DNA of 64,000 nucleotides, taken from the NCBI GenBank assembly GCA_004022145.1, contig RCNU01000001.1; one strand, given 5' to 3'. A model generated the notes under the pieces. It was not told the DNA's origin. It searched no databases and saw only the letters and a list, made by a program, of their open reading frames with translations. A program made the position numbers and the translations under genes. The stretch's first letter is position 1; every line of letters begins with the position of its first letter. Shown piece after piece: positions 51,270 to 62,206 of the stretch. This stretch comes from Paecilomyces variotii (taxonomy: Eukaryota).

Positions 51270-52087
<818 letters not shown>

Positions 52088-52360: not shown

Positions 52361-53482
52361 TTAAATTGCCTTTAGATAGCCGGCAACCCTTGCGCTCAAG
52401 TCGCGCCTAGGTTCATCCTCATCGTCACCACTCAGAGCATGGCTAGCTCCTGGAACGACTCCGCTATGCTCAGAGTCCCAGATCTCCTTTTCGGCATTAG
52501 CTGCGTTCTTCCATCTTTGGAGCAGCTTCTCTTTGTCCACCGATGGAGGCGTGTGCTCGTCGTTGCCTGAATACAAAACAAGCAACTTGGTCTTGAGTAG
52601 ACCTTTTGACGGAATCGCCCCAAACGTTTCTTGCAGGCGCTTATCAGTGAGATCCGAACTGAACAGGTCGTCCTCGCGAGGGTTTTCCGGACTATCAGGG
52701 CTAACCAGGCTCAGGAATCTTATGCTGCTGATGGGCGTGTCTGCAGGATAGCCAAGTTGAGCAGTCATGGAGAGTGGCAGGACGGTCTCAACTTTGTTTG
52801 GGGTATACGGCATCAATTTTGCCATACTAACAAGCTGATCATAACAGCCGACCAATACATTGGGTACATCTTTCTCCGTCCCCGTCGTCAAGGAATGAAG
52901 GATAGCCTCGCGGTCCGAAACAGGGGCCTGGAGAATAGCACCGTCCACTTCAGGTCGGACGATGTGTTTCAGACCATCATCAAAGTCGGGGTTGGGAGGA
53001 ATTGGGTTGGATGTATAGAGGTAGTGCAGGACATCCTGGCTACCGGTGGAATGGCCCATGATAACGATCTTCCTGGTCCCATCCGAGGCAGCAGGGTGAG
53101 AGGATTTATATTCCCGTACGTAATTCACGCACTGCGCAATCTCCTCGACGTCTTTGTCCAGACTGCTCATTCCCCATCCCGTATAAGATGAAGAGAGCAG
53201 CAGGTTAAAAACGGACCATTCTGTTGGCTCCAGAGCCGCGACGAGATCCTGTACATAGCGAACGGTACCCAGGCCGTCCGTTAAGCCGCCAATGAAGAGC
53301 AGACTGTGTGGCTTGGTGCTTGGCTTGGATCCATGTTCAAAAGCGACTAGCCTTGGTGACTGTAGAAGTTAGGCAAATTCATCTCTATCAGCGCGCGCCA
53401 ATGCAGATTGAGCATAATCAAGGTGGCATATTCATACATAATGGTGGAGGACACCGGGCTGGGCTGGGGAGTGCGCGGGCAT
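52361..53482 (-). CDS. DUF1749 alpha/beta hydrolase (SidJ-like family; 2 exons)
   Basis: PGVLHHY-SPRLVAFE, LLFIGGLTDG, nucleophile GHSTGSQD, ILQAPVSDRE, DDLFSSDL, SGNDEH, PGASH. Confidence 0.88.
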
Positions 53483-54317: not shown

Positions 54318-56642
54318 ATGGCTCGCGCGCGCAGATCTGGTCGCCTATCTGGTGCAAGAACCAAATATACGGATGATCCGTTCGAACTCGCCGGAATCAG
54401 CGGAGAGTCTGGCTCCGAGGACCAAGAGAAGAGGTCAGCGAGTAAAGGAGAAAGGAGGGCAGCGCGAGATGACTCTTCAGATGAAGACTTTGCCGAATCG
54501 GGAGACGATGTTGAAAACTATGAAGATGAGGAGGACGACGACAATACAGAGGCCGATGTTGGGACCTCACCTCCTGGAACTGAAGTGTTCGACGAAGACG
54601 AAGAAATGATTGATGGTGATGAGAGACCTGTTCGAAAAGTGGTCTCAGCGAGGAACTTTCGATCGAAGAAGAGGAAACCAGATGGCGCAGTCGATGTTCG
54701 CCCAGAAGATACGCATTCTCGCGGTATCTGGAACGCTACCGAGCACGTTGGCAAGTCTACCCATATCAAGTTGGTTTTCGGAACAGACGATCGTGACCGT
54801 CTGGCAATGGCGTATGCCAGAGATCGATGGTTTCGTGGTATTGACTCTGGTTTTCCAACTCGCACGTCTTTGGATGAAGCCCAGACGATGTCCAGTTATG
54901 GATACGGGCCTACATTCGGTATCCACCCAGATGATGCAGAAAGAGAGGCAACTACTGGGTGGGACTGGTATTACCAGGAAGATATTGGTGGGAGATTCCG
55001 AAAAAGACAGCGCGTTGAGAAGATCCAGGAGGAGGATGCGCGGAGCCAATATCTACCGCGCGCAGGTCAACGGAAACACACTGTTATGGTTGGTCCGACC
55101 GATGCCAGGAAGACATACGAGTTGGGACAGTTCGAGGTACTTAATTTCGGTGATGCATGGGGTGAAGCCAAAGCTCGGAACAAGAAAGGAGCAGCAACTT
55201 CCGAAGATTCTGAATCTCGAGCGTCTTCTTCCCGCGCATCAGCCGCTTCTGACAAATCTTCTGGGAAGAAGAAGATGAGAGAAGGGTGGATTCTTAATCT
55301 GGGGAATAAAATCCAATGTCTGGCCTGGGCACCGAACCAATCTGGTCTCACACAATATCTGGCTATTGTTGTGCCCATAACTCAGGAACAGAAGGACGCA
55401 TATCCCAAACCAACAGAGCCAAAGGGTGCCCCAGCGTTTACACCTTCAGAGGGAACACCTGCGGCCTTGCAGATTTGGGCGTTCAAGGCCAGGAAAGGTG
55501 ATTCATTTACAAGGGAACTTGACACGAGTGTACGACCTAAGCTGCGGATGGTTATATGTACCGATTGGGGCGATCTAAGGCGCATACACTGGTGTCAGAT
55601 GCCACGCCAGAGCAGGGAGGAAGATGATGAAGACGTCTCTAAGAACCTTGGGCTTCTGGCCGGCGTATGGGCGGACGGTAGGGTAAGAGTACTTGATATC
55701 AAGCTGAGTCGGAATCCAGATTCGACCGAATTCTGTGAGTACAACGGAGGGATATACGCGAAAGTGTCTCAGACTAACACCAGCATAGACAAGATGCATT
55801 CGCCCGCCTTTGAGTCGAAGCCTCCTTCAACGATCTGTACATGTATGACTTGGTTGTCTCCTACGGATATTGCTGTCGGTTGCGCAAATGGTTTCCTCGC
55901 AGTATGGAGCATCTTGCCCGCCCAGGATGAAAAGCCGGGGACGGAAGCGCTGCCTTACATCTACCAGCGGTATCATACAACTTACGTTCTGAGCGTCGAC
56001 TCCGCCTATCCAACACATGCACATCTCGTGGCGACCACGTCCATGGATGGAGAGACACGACTATCGTCTCTTCTGGACCATCAAAAGGATACGGTAGAGA
56101 CCACCCGAATGCGGATGGGCTCCGCACAGCTCTCATACTCTCCGTTCCTTCAAGCTTTCTTCTCGAGTGACGAGAATGATTTCGCACGGCTGCTGGCTGT
56201 CCGACGCTTCTTTTCAACGACAGCTGTAGCAAGATTGCCCAGTACTGTGACTGCGCTGGCGCAATGCAGCTCTTGGCACCCATCTGCCTTGTTGGGATGC
56301 GCGAGCGGCTCTGTGATTGCCGCAAATCCGTTGAGAAGACTGCTCTATGCCAAAGAGAAGCATTGGCAACAAACCTGGTTTGCACACGAATGGGTGTCTG
56401 GCAAAAGCGACGATAGCTCGGGTATCAGTAGGTTCCACGATGGATTCAAAGCCGAAAGCGTTAGTCTGCTTCGAAACTTGATGGGAGACCGAAAATTAAT
56501 CAATGGAACAATGATCATCACGATCTACGATGAGCCTACGCACGTCACGGCATTATCTTGGAATCTCAACCAGAGATGCGCTGGATGGGCCAGTGCAGGG
56601 ATGGGGTGCGGGCTGGTTAGAGTAGAAGATCTCGCAATGTGA
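54318..56642 (+). CDS. TFC6: TFIIIC WD40 subunit (Tfc6/tau91-like)
   Basis: Acidic/basic N-terminus, GWILNLG..IQCLAWAP, IAVGCANGFLAVW, WASAGMGCGLVRVEDL; in-frame intron 55735-55788. Confidence 0.8.
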   Translation: MARARRSGRLSGARTKYTDDPFELAGISGESGSEDQEKRSASKGERRAARDDSSDEDFAESGDDVENYEDEEDDDNTEADVGTSPPGTEVFDEDEEMIDGDERPVRKVVSARNFRSKKRKPDGAVDVRPEDTHSRGIWNATEHVGKSTHIKLVFGTDDRDRLAMAYARDRWFRGIDSGFPTRTSLDEAQTMSSYGYGPTFGIHPDDAEREATTGWDWYYQEDIGGRFRKRQRVEKIQEEDARSQYLPRAGQRKHTVMVGPTDARKTYELGQFEVLNFGDAWGEAKARNKKGAATSEDSESRASSSRASAASDKSSGKKKMREGWILNLGNKIQCLAWAPNQSGLTQYLAIVVPITQEQKDAYPKPTEPKGAPAFTPSEGTPAALQIWAFKARKGDSFTRELDTSVRPKLRMVICTDWGDLRRIHWCQMPRQSREEDDEDVSKNLGLLAGVWADGRVRVLDIKLSRNPDSTEFCEYNGGIYAKVSQTNTSIDKMHSPAFESKPPSTICTCMTWLSPTDIAVGCANGFLAVWSILPAQDEKPGTEALPYIYQRYHTTYVLSVDSAYPTHAHLVATTSMDGETRLSSLLDHQKDTVETTRMRMGSAQLSYSPFLQAFFSSDENDFARLLAVRRFFSTTAVARLPSTVTALAQCSSWHPSALLGCASGSVIAANPLRRLLYAKEKHWQQTWFAHEWVSGKSDDSSGISRFHDGFKAESVSLLRNLMGDRKLINGTMIITIYDEPTHVTALSWNLNQRCAGWASAGMGCGLVRVEDLAM

Positions 56643-57497
56643 TTTCTTTTTGGAACAGTGTTTATTGCTCAGTTTCACAGAAGTCTCGATTTCAGAGTAA
56701 TAATTCCAGGACGGTAGAGGCCTTCCAGGCCCTGTGTCGATGGAGCGGTGGCTGTAGGGATTTCACCTGCCTTGCAGGTTTGGAGAACTCAGGACGGCAG
56801 AAAGCGGGGTCCCTTTGGGGTTATTATAGTAGCAGATGATGTCAAGTCTTAACTACCTAGTTAGTCTAGAAGATAGTTACTAATTTAGTCTATCTAGACA
56901 ACTCAGCGTGATGGAAGAGCGAGCTGTCTGGAGATGATTTTCAGGGGCGCAGCTGTCGGTGTCCAGCCACACTTTAAATCGCCGCCACAGCCTGCACATC
57001 GTCGACTTCTCGTCTCGATCATCGGGCATCAGGTTGCAATGCGATAGGCGATATCTAGACAGGAAAAGCACATGGCCTAGTCTAGGTATCTGCCAATGAC
57101 TAGTTAGCCCTTGGTGTTCCATGAGGCGATGGATACCTAGCGGGGAGTCGTGGCTGGGCCAACGATGGTCTCGCTGATAGCTTTGTTTCCCAGCCTCCAG
57201 ACGACAAAACAAACCCACCGAGCGGATGGATCTCCACGGCGATGAGGGAAACAGCTGGCAAAGCCCCCCAGCCATCGCACATTTGATTGTAGCTATATCA
57301 GAGGCTGGGATCTCTTCCCTTCGTCCCATTGCCAACTAATTTGATCTCTGGCAGATTCGTCCACAAGAGATCTACTGAAGAACTTTAGTCCAGTGGTGCA
57401 TTGATCTTGAGTGCACTGAATTTCTTTTCTTTCTTTCTCTCTTGTTGTTCACTTGGTCTTATTTCCTTGATTCTATACACCAATTATCGAGTTGAAC

Positions 57498-58370
57498 ATG
57501 TATTTCAATACCGCTGCGGTGCTTCTGGCCATTTCATCACTCTCAGCCGCTGTCCCAGTTGCGAACCAGCAGAACGACGCATCTCTTGAGAAGAGATATT
57601 CCGTCGTTGCTGTCGATGGAAGCTCTCAGACCACTTCACCTGTGATTGAGACCAAGACGGTCGCTACCACGAAGTACGTGACGATCTCACCGACTCCAAC
57701 GCCTTTGCCGTACTGGAACAGTACGCAGCCAGTGGGCTACGCTCGTAAAGCCCGCAGAGCATTCAACGCAACATCAAATGAAGCCGCCCCCATACGGAGA
57801 TTGGCGCGTTCCGCTGAATCTGTGAACGGTTCCTCCTGGAACAGCCTTAAGAGCCGCAGCCAGAACGAGACATCAGGCTCTTCCAGTCCGCTTCACATTC
57901 GAAGCACATGGACGGACGGACCCGCAGCTAACTGGACCACAAACGTCCGCGCCAGGAGCTGGAACAGCACGTACCGGGTTCCTGTTTATGTTCCCAAGAT
58001 GGCTCGAGGCGAAGGCGAAGAGGCTGCTAACTGGACTGCGAGTACTCTGGAGGTCAGAAGCGCGAACGCTACTTCTCTGAAAGCTCGCGGCCTCTACAAC
58101 TCGACCGTGGACAACCTGGAGGTCAGAAACTGGAATGCTACCTCTCTCAAGACTCGCGGTTTCTACGACGGTGAAGGCTCGACCAATGCAACTGGCGCCC
58201 ACAAGTTCGAAGTCCGAAGCTGGAATACCACTCGCGCATCTCTTGGAGTTCGGTCTCTGAACAGCTCATCTCCTGTCGACCTTCCACCTCTGCGTCCTCA
58301 GCCGCAGACTTCCGCTGCCCCGGACACCGTCCCTGCTATGTCCAGGCCTCAGTACGAGGGCGGCTATTGA
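57498..58370 (+). CDS. Secreted repetitive glycoprotein / candidate kexin-processed peptide precursor
   Basis: Signal peptide MYFNTAAVLLAISSLSAA, propeptide ending LEKR, Arg-terminated modules, 13 N-x-S/T sequons, no Cys, no TM or GPI tail. Confidence 0.85.
   Translation: MYFNTAAVLLAISSLSAAVPVANQQNDASLEKRYSVVAVDGSSQTTSPVIETKTVATTKYVTISPTPTPLPYWNSTQPVGYARKARRAFNATSNEAAPIRRLARSAESVNGSSWNSLKSRSQNETSGSSSPLHIRSTWTDGPAANWTTNVRARSWNSTYRVPVYVPKMARGEGEEAANWTASTLEVRSANATSLKARGLYNSTVDNLEVRNWNATSLKTRGFYDGEGSTNATGAHKFEVRSWNTTRASLGVRSLNSSSPVDLPPLRPQPQTSAAPDTVPAMSRPQYEGGY
58047..58169 (+). repeat. Intragenic 69-bp-period imperfect duplication
   Basis: CTGGAGGTCAGAAGCGCGAACGCTACTTCTCTGAAAGCTCGCGGCCTCTACAAC (58047) vs CTGGAGGTCAGAAACTGGAATGCTACCTCTCTCAAGACTCGCGGTTTCTACGAC (58116). 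Confidence 0.9.
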
Positions 58371-59205
58371 TAAACGACGACGTGACATATTGACGATCCA
58401 CATGATACATATTATGAAAATGCCTTCCTGCACATACGGACCATGGAGGCGGTTGCATATGCACGGCGCTTGATATTTCTTTACGAATCACTACGGATTA
58501 ATGGATTGAATGTTGGTCCAGATTGAAAAACGCAATTGGGGGACGGTGATAGATATCTTATTTTGACAGCAAAGAACATAGATTGCCATGGTGTATGATT
58601 ACTTTAGATAGAAACCTCGCTTAACGAATAAGCAATGTCAATCAAATAACCGATTTAATGATTAAAAACAGCGATATTTCCATCCGCTGAGCGGCTAAAA
58701 GAACATCTTCAGCCTTGAATTATCAGTCTCAAGTCTCCAACTATCACATAATACGTAATGGAGTACTATCGCCCCTTCTCTAGTAAATCCGCCCGCCTGG
58801 ACAGCATGAACCACCTTCTCTGCTTGAGGATTGATTTGACTCGATGGTAACTATTCGGAACATATATTTGGATATATTGTCAGTGAGAATACTTGCTATA
58901 GGTGCATTAGTTCACAGGGGAAGCGTAAGATACCTACTAATGAATGAGGTCGGGGACGAGGCTAGCGCGGGAGCCGCTGCTGGGCGTTCTAAAGTTACTA
59001 TCAGAGCTCGTGCAACTTCCCGACCCCGGATCCAGATCATAGCCAGTGATTATCGCATGTCCGCTCCGCCTCTTCTGCTTCTTTCAATTCACTAGCATGG
59101 TGACCTGGTAAACTGCGGTCTCCTCAATCCTTTCTCCGTCTTGCGCAACCGTCATTGAAGTGATCCCGAGCGTGTTCCCCTCCCGGAGGTCCCCTCCCAG
59201 CTACA

Positions 59206-62200
59206 ATGGCTACCACCACTTCCACTTCCGAGGAACAGAGCCGCCTGCTCGAGGAGGCTCTGGGAGTGGTACGGCAGCAGTCGCATATGATGCGAAAATG
59301 CTTAGAGACTCCAGGAAAGCTGATGGATGCGCTCAAATGCGGGTGAGTGGGAAGCAGCCGGTCGGACAGCAGGCAGCCAGATTGCGCGATTGCTTACTGA
59401 CAGTCTGTCCATGGAATAGATCTACCTTGGTCTCGGAACTACGAACGCCCAGTTTGGGCCCGAAACAATACTACGAGCTCTACATGGCCGTCTTTGATGC
59501 GTTGCGACACCTGTCCGTCTACCTGCGCGAAAGCCACCCCGTGAATCACCTCGCCGACCTCTACGAGCTGGTCCAATATGCGGGCAACATCATCCCTCGT
59601 CTGTATCTCATGATCACGGTGGGGACGGTCTACATGTCGGTGGAAGATGCCCCGGTCAAGGAGATTATGAAGGATATGATGGAGATGAGCCGCGGTGTGC
59701 AGCACCCCATCCGGGGTCTGTTCCTGAGATACTATCTCTCTGGACAGGCGCGGGATCATCTACCTACCGGATCAGGAGATGGCCCAGAAGGCAACTTGCA
59801 GGACTCGATCAACTTTATCCTGACGAATTTCGTGGAAATGAACAAGTTATGGGTCAGACTACAGCATCAGGGTCCCTCTAGGGAACGGGAGCAGAGAACG
59901 CAGGAGAGACGGGAATTGGAATTGCTGGTTGGCAGCAACATCGTCCGCTTGAGTCAGTTGGTTGACTTAGAAACCTACAAGTCGGTTATTCTGCAACCTC
60001 TCCTGGAACAGGTGGTTCAATGTCGTGATGTTTTGGCACAGGAGTACCTCCTTGAAGGTAAATATCACTTGCTGTTCGGGTATTTTGGATACTAAATCGT
60101 GTCTCTAGTTATCACAAAGGTGTTCCCTGATGAGTACCACCTCCACACTCTGGATCTCATGCTCTCTGCTATCGCGAGGCTTAATCCGCATGTGGATATG
60201 AAGAAGATCGTCATTGGACTCATGGACCGGCTATCATCTTACGCTGCTAGAGAGTCAGAAACAACGGAGGACCCTGCAACCAAACAGAAGGCCGAGGAGG
60301 AAGCTGTCACCAAGCTTCTGGAGAAATTAAAGGTGTCCGAGAAGGCGAAGGGTGACGAGAGCGCAGAGTCTGGTGCTATCCAGGAAAATGGTGCGAAGGC
60401 CGAAGAGCAATCTGAAGCACCGGACGAATCCGAAAAGCCCTCTGAGGAAAAGGCAACGACGAACGGAGTGACCGGTGTAACGAAAACGGGTATTCCGGGC
60501 GACATCAAGCTGTACGAGATATTCTACGAGCAGGTTGTCAATTTGATTAAGACTCGGGGCTTGCCAATACAGGATGCTCTCGCATTGTTGGTATCTCTCG
60601 TTAACCTTGCTCTGTAAGTCACAATCCAAAATCCGCACGATCTGCCCTTACTAACAGCTTATAGGAACATTTATCCCGATCGTCTAGGTAAGGACAAACA
60701 TAAGGTTCTGATTGTGCTCAGCTGACAGCTTTGCTCACTATGTCAATAGAATATGTCGATCAAGTCCTTGAATATGCCATCCAGAAGACGGCTGAGTATG
60801 CCGACCATGCCGACCTTCACTCGACACCAGCACAGCAGAATATTTTGAGCCTCCTCCTTTCTCCCCTCCGATCATATCACTCCATTTTCACAGCACTCAC
60901 CTTGCCCAACTATATACCCCTTCTCTTATCGCAGTCTTATTCTACGCGCAGGTCGGTGGCAGCCGAGGTTGCCCGCAGTATCTTGCGCAACAAGACTCTG
61001 ATCACTACATCCGAGAATCTGGACAGGGTTCTACAGGTGCTGAGGGTTCTGATCAAAGAAGGCACGCAGCAACCGGTGGGATATCCCGGATTGTCATCAC
61101 AGCGTCGTGGAGGGGAGACGGACGAGACGATCGAGGAACAAGGATGGCTTGCCAGGCTGGTGCACCTGATCCAGGGGCCTGATAATGATACCCAATTGAA
61201 AGTGAGCATAGCAACGAGACAACGTGTATGTGAACAATTCTGACGGATTCCATACAGCTCCTCCAGGCAACCCGCAAGGCGTATACAGATGGTGGCGAAC
61301 GCATCCGTTATACTACACCAGCCATCATCACAGCTTCGTTGCGGCTAGCTCGCAAGTTGAAATCCCGGGAGCATTTCGATGACAACTGGCAGGGCCAGTC
61401 TTCGACTCTGTACCGATTCATGCACCAATGTGTTAGTAACCTCTACCAGAGGGTGAACCCCGGCTGTGCCGATCTTGCTCTTCGGCTGTTCGTAATGTGT
61501 GGTGAGATTGCCGACCAGACCGGCTTCGAAGAGTTCAGCTACGAGTTCTTTGCCCAAGCGTTCACAATCTATGAAGACGCTATCAGCGATTCGAGAGCAC
61601 AGTTCCAAGCAGTCTGCATCATCGCGGGCGCTCTTAGTCGAACGAGAGGATTCTCCAAGGAAAATTACGACACTCTGATCACGAAAGCTGCCTTGCACGG
61701 AAGCAAACTGCTCAAGAAGCCCGATCAATGCCGGGCGGTATATCTGGCAAGCCACCTATGGTGGCTCGTTGAGGACGCCCAGAGAGAGGAAGATCCCAAG
61801 AACGTAAGTCGCTTCTCCATTCCTTTTTTTTTTCTCTTTTTGCTATAGATCTCACCAAACTAAAACCGGACTGGACTAACCTGTACAGCTCTACCGCGAT
61901 GGCAAGCGCGTTCTTGAATGTCTCCAGCGCGCTCTCCGCGTCGCCGACGCTTGCATGGACACTGCCGTATCCGTTGAACTCTTCGTCGAGATCCTCAACC
62001 GATACGTGTACTATTTTGATCAAGGCAACGAAACCGTCACGGTCAAGTACCTCAACGGTCTCATCGAACTGATCCACTCGAACCTGCAGACCAACCAAGG
62101 CGAAGCCAATGCCAGCCTGGAGGCCCCGAAACGCCACTTCGAGCGCACTCTGGAGTATATCCGATCGAGAGAATACGAAGGAGTCATCACTGAGGCGCGG

Positions 62201-62206
62201 ACGTGA
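59206..62206 (+). CDS. VPS35: Retromer cargo-recognition subunit Vps35, multi-exon
   Basis: [76 protein letters not shown]; includes a 23-nt exon 60665-60687. Confidence 0.97.

Follow-up and report, generated by a model that had tools for sequence, protein, structure and literature searches.

Fungal Kex2-processed repeat proteins (KEPs) have been defined, in the accessible parts of three surveys, by a signal peptide and at least three similar repeats between dibasic KR, RR, KK or RK sites (PMC7329392; PMC6339444; PMC9769878). In these parts, Umemura (PMC7329392), Le Marquer (PMC6339444) and the first screen of Vogt (PMC9769878) consider dibasic cutting only, and the second screen of Vogt chose repeats by eye and covered Coprinopsis only. 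Peptidomics of KEPs nevertheless detected cleavage after single Arg residues, as well as conversion of N-terminal Gln to pyroglutamate (excerpts of PMC9769878). Kex2 requires Arg at P1, prefers Leu or another aliphatic residue at P4 and tolerates variation at P2 (PMC8528282; bioRxiv 2020.05.27.120113; PMC6258133), and the five best alternative P2 residues of PMC8528282 exclude Ala and Val. At P1' and P2', acidic or small residues are favoured, going by the accessible part of PMC2515848.

Rep1 of Ustilago maydis is, like the protein described below, a secreted precursor, from which Kex2 produces numerous linear peptides that differ in sequence and act at the surface (excerpts of PMC8528282 and PMC3133707). 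The K2PP effectors (Outram 2020, 2021) share with it an LxxR motif with Leu at P4, Arg at P1 and variable P3 and P2. The precursors of dikaritin RiPPs (ustiloxin, asperipin-2a) are likewise secreted repeat precursors of Eurotiales. Outside fungi, codfish antifreeze glycoprotein polyproteins also carry single-Arg and R-A-A-R sites and yield many small glycopeptides; incomplete cleavage is suspected there (both from the accessible part of PMC8622921).

Here we describe a gene in a stretch of 64,000 nucleotides of Paecilomyces variotii DNA (the window) whose product, judged by sequence comparison, may be a non-canonical KEP-like precursor. We put the probability that KexB cuts most of its monobasic LxxR sites and thereby releases short glycopeptides at roughly 0.5. 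Secretion, glycan occupancy, cleavage, the identity of the protease and the role of the products are things that we infer. The gene and its surroundings are laid out as follows.

54318..56642, plus strand: homologue of TFIIIC tau91 (Tfc6), upstream; E 7.7e-15, 65% identity in the Thermoascus-type locus L002
57350..58651, plus strand: extent of the transcript, a single unspliced contig of run X10 that finishes in 13 unaligned A at 58651
57498..58370, plus strand: coding sequence, 290 aa, from the ORF reading and the X10 contig
57498..57551, plus strand: predicted signal peptide, aa 1-18, from hydropathy and alignment
57552..57596, plus strand: short pro-segment, aa 19-33, ending at the canonical Kex2 site LEKR (57585-57596)
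57597..57758, plus strand: conserved Ser/Thr-rich first segment, aa 34-87, ending at KARR; the part to which most of the distant matches align
57759..58253, plus strand: module array, aa 88-252, with 11 modules of 10-20 aa and one sequon each in the parse of the first-pass annotation
57789-57809, 57846-57857, 57891-57902 and 57945-57956: array junctions RR/RLAR, LKSR, LHIR and VRAR
57996-58007, 58047-58058, 58077-58088 and 58116-58127: array junctions KMAR, LEVR, LKAR and LEVR
58146-58157, 58206-58217 and 58242-58253: array junctions LKTR, FEVR and LGVR
58059..58157, plus strand: recently duplicated core, aa 188-220, from alignment
58254..58367, plus strand: Pro-rich C-terminal tail, aa 253-290, which contains a D-L-P-x-L-P-like motif and the sequon at N255
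59206..62206, plus strand: Vps35, downstream; ends from the sequence and the ORF list, syntenic in L002

The ORF has no intron and no Cys. A word-based search matched it to a P. variotii hypothetical protein with 97% identity. A paralogue family within the genome is ruled out, since queries P0001 and P0028 each found one match in the 30-Mb assembly and the gene is thus single copy. Hydropathy peaks at 2.1 over aa 5-19, later hydrophobic 19-mers are absent, and A18 and P20 are invariant in the family alignments as a conserved A-x-P. The Arg at the place of LEKR is nearly invariant in an alignment of 24 sequences. The first segment contains the family motif Y-x-V-V-x-V-D/G-G and a sequon at N74. 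The modules are hydrophilic (GRAVY -0.57), and Ser plus Thr account for about 25-30% of residues throughout. Of the 13 fragments that cutting at LxxR would give, 9 resemble at least one other with 40% identity or more, and five resemble two or more; a repeat search found no DNA tandem repeats inside the gene. At the duplicated core, the Paecilomyces proteins P0004 and P0005 have an additional 23-aa unit of two modules, and they carry 15 sequons. The tail motif recurs in Thermoascus-type relatives and in some that lack modules. The C-terminus has no GPI or transmembrane signal, the highest 19-residue hydropathy past aa 30 being 0.25.

The X10 contig, which has no joint and ends in a run of A, together with the cover in run X2, indicates that the gene is transcribed and intronless. 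An intron or a mis-called ORF is ruled out, as the transcript contig has no joint inside the gene. The idea of a processed precursor had been made to depend on transcription, and the unspliced X10 message speaks for it. The contig gives a 5' UTR of about 148 nt and a 3' UTR of 281 nt, read from a strain that differs from the reference by 25 other letters and 8 gaps. As a control, two Vps35 introns are removed from X10 and the flanking intergenic bins are uncovered. In X2 the neighbours are spliced and the 290-aa gene is covered piecemeal. The transcript was read from 4 of the 24 listed runs, whose contigs give neither level, strand nor exact ends. X5 and X8 are labelled RNA, and we did not count them as transcription because they cover introns and intergenic DNA in a DNA-like manner. 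The gene's words have no match in X21-X24, four runs of the same species label guessed to be RNA, which does not prove absence.

The protein contains 13 N-x-S/T sequons (aa 74, 90, 110, 123, 145, 156, 178, 190, 201, 213, 230, 243 and 255), as the first-pass annotation had counted. Composition shuffles of aa 34-290 have a mean of 4.1 sequons and reach 13 in 1 of 20000 cases. That a sequon often lies at +3 from an Arg was also read correctly: Arg-x-x-sequon occurs 7 times against 0.34 expected, a number reached by 0 of 20000 shuffles. The further claim of 13 modules with exactly one sequon each survives as a near-one-to-one alternation, but the exact count does not. A junction rule fixed beforehand (L/I/V/F/M-x-x-R or KR/RR, not preceding Pro) gives 12 sites and 12 segments, of which 11 have one sequon and one (aa 154-187) has two, because KMAR with its basic P4 is not counted by the rule. 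When 13 sequons are placed at random, only 22 of 200000 trials leave none of the 12 segments empty. Past the leader, LIVFM-x-x-R occurs 9 times against 3.3 expected (4 of 2000 shuffles); since the modules are internally duplicated, all these p-values are inflated and homologues are the better test.

We used the stricter rule because the P4 class proposed before (aliphatic, aromatic or basic), although true of all 13 junctions, is broad: with Ala it comprises 47% of residues and fits 16 of 22 Arg, which makes the P4 statement weak by itself. As a control, LIVFM stands at P4 of 118 of 513 Arg in the 19 other window ORFs of at least 200 aa (23%; background 24%). These ORFs carry 0.41 sequons per 100 aa, the 290-aa protein 4.48.

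How far does the family extend? An exhaustive profile search found 34 representatives and overturned the Thermoascaceae-only range given by word-based searches (6 and 7 matches); a 24-sequence profile led to 31 proteins, 20 of them species-named. A signal peptide, the first basic site and the Thr-rich Y-x-V-V-x-V-D/G-G segment are common to all profile-found relatives. The family thus appears to be Eurotiales-wide, comprising Aspergillus, Penicillium, Paecilomyces and Thermoascus, and uncharacterised as far as our searches reach; the putative orthology in Aspergillus and Penicillium is drawn from sequence and tree. Pfam gave one sub-threshold match for the 290-aa protein (E 0.25) and none for 37 of 37 relatives, the family profile had no match among PDB sequences, and the best ESM Atlas scores (0.84-0.85, to hypothetical proteins) were at chance level. 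In the openly accessible full-text literature we found neither the family nor N-glycosylated KEP peptides; subscription journals and supplements could name an orthologue.

Nine relatives have the leader and the first segment without an array. Some members of the family can thus do without the array, and the first segment (aa 34-87) appears to be the family's oldest part. Five array-less proteins (P0023, P0024, P0028, P0033 and P0038) carry a D-x-G-x-W/Y-H motif and may show the ancestral layout that received the modules. Some of them also have, like the 290-aa protein, an L-P-x-L-P tail, together with a late RR and a W-N-x-S/T sequon.

For the tallies below, 34 of 65 proteins were grouped by eye, with near-duplicates, fragments, short arrays and non-modular proteins excluded. 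The circularity of such groups is limited by two checks. First, sequon counts in species-named proteins separate the genera: 11 of 11 named Aspergillus relatives have 7-17 sequons and 9 of 9 named Penicillium relatives have 0-1, the reverse of an earlier assignment of the sequon type to Penicillium and the sequon-less type to Aspergillus. Second, in a tree of the N-terminal part only (45 rows; P0013 was dropped for want of an anchor), the Aspergillus-type group (97/94) and, more weakly, the Penicillium-type group (89/84) each form one side of a branch.

Within Paecilomyces, the P1 Arg is kept at 26 of 26 places and P4 at 24 of 26, compared with 345 of 404 other positions. In alignment with the Thermoascus type, 26 of 31 P1 Arg residues are retained, as are 16 of 31 sequon Asn residues and 169 of 503 residues elsewhere. 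The P1 Arg is thus the best-conserved position class at an overall identity of 26-32%. In 13 Aspergillus-type proteins, LIVFM occupies P4 of 139 of 220 Arg (41.6 expected). Most of their 160 segments hold one sequon (125, with none in 34 and two in 1), which mostly lies 2-3 residues past the Arg. The 15 Penicillium-type proteins have LIVFM at P4 of 111 of 166 Arg (31.8 expected) and only 2 sequons among 75 Asn, where 18.7 are expected. Their modules are longer, consist of 13% Pro and 29% Ser plus Thr, and stand behind L-x-A-R. In three Paecilomyces proteins, 37 of 40 segments have one sequon. The weakest case is the Thermoascus type (three proteins): aliphatic P4 is found at 16 of 54 Arg against 10.1 expected, counts that 832, 30 and 690 of 2000 shuffles reach, and 9 of 29 segments have no sequon.

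Once the four junction residues are removed, Aspergillus-type and Penicillium-type modules score about zero or below against each other (8 proteins), which means that the junction outlasts the module. The LxxR junction is repeated 5-17 times per protein in the family, with up to 15-18 junctions in some Aspergillus species, and Arg far exceeds Lys in the arrays (202:23 and 124:6); tandem duplication copies any motif, so counts inside one protein are not independent. The sequons missing from the Penicillium type and the weak signal of the Thermoascus type indicate that having one N-glycan in each module is a trait of the Paecilomyces and Aspergillus lineages. The conserved trait of the array is aliphatic-x-x-Arg followed by a small or acidic residue, and not the sequon. 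The expectation that Arg and sequon periodicity would persist in Eurotiales while spacers diverge is therefore borne out in part: Arg periodicity and divergent spacers are seen in Paecilomyces, Aspergillus and Penicillium, whereas the sequon is nearly absent from the Penicillium type and the junction signal itself is weak in the Thermoascus type.

The junction consensus is aliphatic-x-(Ala/Val/Ile/Ser/Thr)-Arg, followed by Ser, Gly, Asp, Glu, Gln, Ala or Asn. One of these seven residues stands at P1' in 32 of 37 Paecilomyces sites, 133 of 147 sites of a further set and 107 of 112 Penicillium-type sites (background about 0.5), and Gln alone in 33 of the 112. At P2, Lys or Arg is found at 5 of 37, 19 of 147 and 20 of 112 sites in the same order; the residue is mostly Ala. 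The genome encodes a kexin (E 1e-154 to yeast Kex2) that retains the acidic S2-pocket residues. From sequence, P1 and P4 of the junctions would suit this enzyme and P2 would suit it poorly, and a glycan 2-3 residues beyond the scissile bond could hinder it. With Ala at P2, an acidic S2 pocket and a glycan at +2 or +3, slow or partial cutting is to be expected.

One could argue that cutting occurs only at KR33, RR87 and RR101. The main product would then be an intact, disordered, densely N-glycosylated, mucin-like wall or matrix chain of 189 aa, with monobasic motifs that are relics of tandem duplication. The protein has only four dibasic pairs (aa 32, 83, 86 and 100), which divide it into fragments of 33, 51, 3, 14 and 189 aa, and all repeats sit inside the last. 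The rarity of basic P2 residues facing a conserved acidic S2 pocket, the weak Thermoascus-type signal and the even Ser and Thr content would all agree with this. However, a relic should decay and accept Lys, and the P1 Arg is the best-conserved class; aliphatic-x-x-Arg with a small P1' is also kept across modules that are otherwise unalike. We hold cutting at these canonical sites alone to be unlikely.

A less likely explanation still is that the repeat is structural, with one or two modules forming a rung of a beta-solenoid or cross-beta fibril in which P4 and P2 point inward and Arg and glycans outward. It covers both an uncut chain and released peptides that restack, as the Rep1 repellents do. 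A small P2 would be compatible with an inward position. The best AlphaFold2 model, from an alignment of 19 sequences headed by an Aspergillus affinis relative, predicts strands over the array; pLDDT is 50-70 for 139 of its 314 residues. VIA-align places this model near generic beta-solenoids, SufBD (Z 13.3, rmsd 3.4, 186 aligned) and CsgA (Z 13.3, rmsd 8.6, 179 aligned). Yet its mean pLDDT is 48.6, the other four models have 33.7-41.6, and Foldseek returned no match at E <= 0.001. The 290-aa protein itself has a pLDDT of 30.5, below 50 at all 290 residues on a shallow 6-sequence alignment, and AlphaFold2 is reported to give repeats unrealistic beta-solenoids (accessible part of bioRxiv 2024.10.30.621056). 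Module lengths are irregular, and the Penicillium-type arrays retain the junction despite their 13% Pro. The absence of a confidently predicted fold agrees with the earlier suggestion that the product is not one folded protein.

About equally improbable is a protein that is processed by a protease other than KexB (a yapsin or a trypsin-like enzyme outside the cell), or whose modules are disposable glycosylated spacers that aid secretion, the active product being the first segment at aa 34-87. The first segment is the only family-wide part, present in the nine array-less relatives too. Non-basic P2 residues suit kexin poorly, and a monobasic-specific yapsin appears as a reference title in the accessible part of PMC2515848. 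Against this stand the strong aliphatic P4 bias, which is the S4 preference of kexin, and the 15-18 junctions of some Aspergillus proteins, which exceed what spacers need. These three explanations can overlap with the release of glycopeptides by KexB.

Other precursor types can be set aside for the following reasons. A K2PP effector carries the motif once, to free a folded and often Cys-rich domain; here it recurs and no folded domain follows, and this type is ruled out by a pLDDT below 50 at all residues (again on six sequences), the absence of Cys and the lack of a Pfam or PDB match. Dikaritin precursors differ in having near-identical, dibasic-flanked cores, and the present gene has housekeeping neighbours. 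The window contains no UstYa/DUF3328 (PF11807) match and the nearest lies on contig C1 at 54 kb, about 1.3 Mb from the gene at 1.36 Mb, which rules a dikaritin out and agrees with the first-pass annotation on the lack of an adjacent UstYa gene and of a dikaritin-type cluster. An alpha-type pheromone precursor is ruled out by the absence of XA/XP Ste13 dipeptide runs past the junctions and of identical cores (there are two single S-A starts), and a GPI-anchored wall glycoprotein by the absence of a C-terminal hydrophobic signal.

With KEPs, the protein shares a signal peptide, a short pro-segment, short tandem modules ending in Arg, variable copy number, the absence of a folded domain and, in the Penicillium branch, Gln at P1'. 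A signal peptide is indicated by hydropathy and A-x-P, and internal short repeats are present. In contrast to KEPs, the modules are only loosely similar and are bounded by monobasic aliphatic-x-x-Arg rather than KR, RR, KK or RK, and each module in Paecilomyces and Aspergillus has an N-glycan sequon. Peptide glycosylation was not found in the accessible parts of Le Marquer 2019 (PMC6339444), Umemura 2020 (PMC7329392) and Vogt 2022 (PMC9769878). The 34 tallied family members have 0-5 dibasic pairs past the leader; since the family falls outside the dibasic definition, published KEP screens would miss it. Table S2 of Umemura lists eight Byssochlamys accessions with GAD or RWQ numbers (accessible part of PMC7329392), and we expect the gene to be absent from it. 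Six leader motifs had no match in the four accessible Le Marquer files (PMC6339444; 89,120 characters, possibly without sequences).

By analogy, the nearest functional model would be Rep1, whose peptides coat Ustilago hyphae. Rep1 peptides are amphipathic and form amyloid, whereas the modules here are shorter, hydrophilic and sequon-bearing, a comparison made with Rep1 by description only. The codfish polyproteins are an analogy only: they are animal proteins of O-glycosylated Thr-Ala-Ala tripeptides and unrelated in sequence, and nothing in the precursor family points to ice binding.

If KexB does release glycopeptides, the signal peptide would direct an unfolded polyprotein precursor into the ER, where the sequons would be N-glycosylated; the Ser/Thr-rich first segment would be O-mannosylated. 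In the late Golgi, KexB would cut at the RR sites and LEKR; its action on the monobasic aliphatic-x-x-Arg junctions would be slower and might stay incomplete, after which a Kex1-type carboxypeptidase may trim the terminal Arg. The products would be the conserved first segment of 54 aa, the tail of 38 aa and up to 11 glycopeptides with a peptide mass of about 1.0-2.1 kDa. Junction and glycosylation potential would be retained while module sequence and number drift. Because this drift appears to be free, the likeliest role would be a bulk or physical one as a hydrated surface or matrix coat, and not a sequence-specific signal or toxin; even given cleavage, we hold such a role to be less likely than not.

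Extended to the whole family, the same processing would make the gene a glycopeptide polyprotein from which kexin cuts a peptide library at monobasic LxxR, with one N-glycan per peptide in Paecilomyces and Aspergillus and Ser/Pro-rich peptides in Penicillium. We offer this tentatively, from the sequences. The Penicillium peptides would probably be O-mannosylated and may often be capped by pyroglutamate. Were it true, fungi would possess a class of gene-encoded glycopeptides to which both dibasic KEP screens and tryptic proteomics are blind, and a hidden monobasic layer in the fungal peptidome. Real products would be a new type of secreted fungal peptide, with one glycan each, in common fungi of food fermentation and spoilage. 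Sister genera appear to have switched between N-glycan and Ser/Pro-rich modules, which would show selection on glycan load, not on peptide sequence. With its conserved cut-site pattern, the family may represent a type of peptide precursor that has been overlooked. Since trypsin cuts at the same Arg, ordinary proteomics is blind to the processing, and this ambiguity may explain why the family escaped notice. The 5-17 natural junctions also offer a way to gauge the tolerance of kexin for non-basic P2 residues and a nearby glycan, a question that bears on protein secretion in industrial moulds.

Penicillium-type modules often begin with Q-F/W-G or G-W-Y past L-x-A-R, with an aromatic head and a Ser/Pro tail (P0009, P0011, P0014, P0015, P0018, P0021, P0022, P0031 and P0040-P0055). 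Such modules are possibly pyroglutamate-capped and amphipathic.

The neighbours named in the first-pass annotation, TFC6 and VPS35, match the tau91/Tfc6 homologue and Vps35. The order Tfc6-gene-Vps35 is retained in L002, to which L003 is identical. A foreign origin is unsupported by the GC content of the gene (0.57), which is only mildly above its surroundings. Elsewhere in the genome, UstYa/DUF3328 has 11 matches in about five places on contigs C1, C12, C23, C56 and C78, likely dikaritin-type clusters unrelated to the precursor gene. About 5.4 kb upstream, the ORF 51434-52087 (plus strand) resembles what we take, from motifs, to be a dolichol-phosphate mannose synthase; a glycosylation-type gene near the precursor gene is probably coincidence. 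Two genes upstream lies a DUF1749 alpha/beta-hydrolase-like ORF (52361-53170, minus strand), for which tblastn gave no match in L002, a locus that may end too early. In the intergenic region upstream, an antisense ORF of 149 aa (56880-57329, minus strand) is probably no gene, as strain contigs have indels of 1-4 nt in and beside it. In A. fumigatus, Afu3g10370 is uncharacterised; two azole tables list it as up-regulated, and on lung cells it is switched off. Going by gene numbering, we presume it to be a possible neighbour of vps35 and a candidate orthologue. The Tfc6 homologue has a GT..AG intron of 54 nt (55735-55788) that is in frame and stop-free, so that a 774-aa ORF spans it, and it is spliced in X2.
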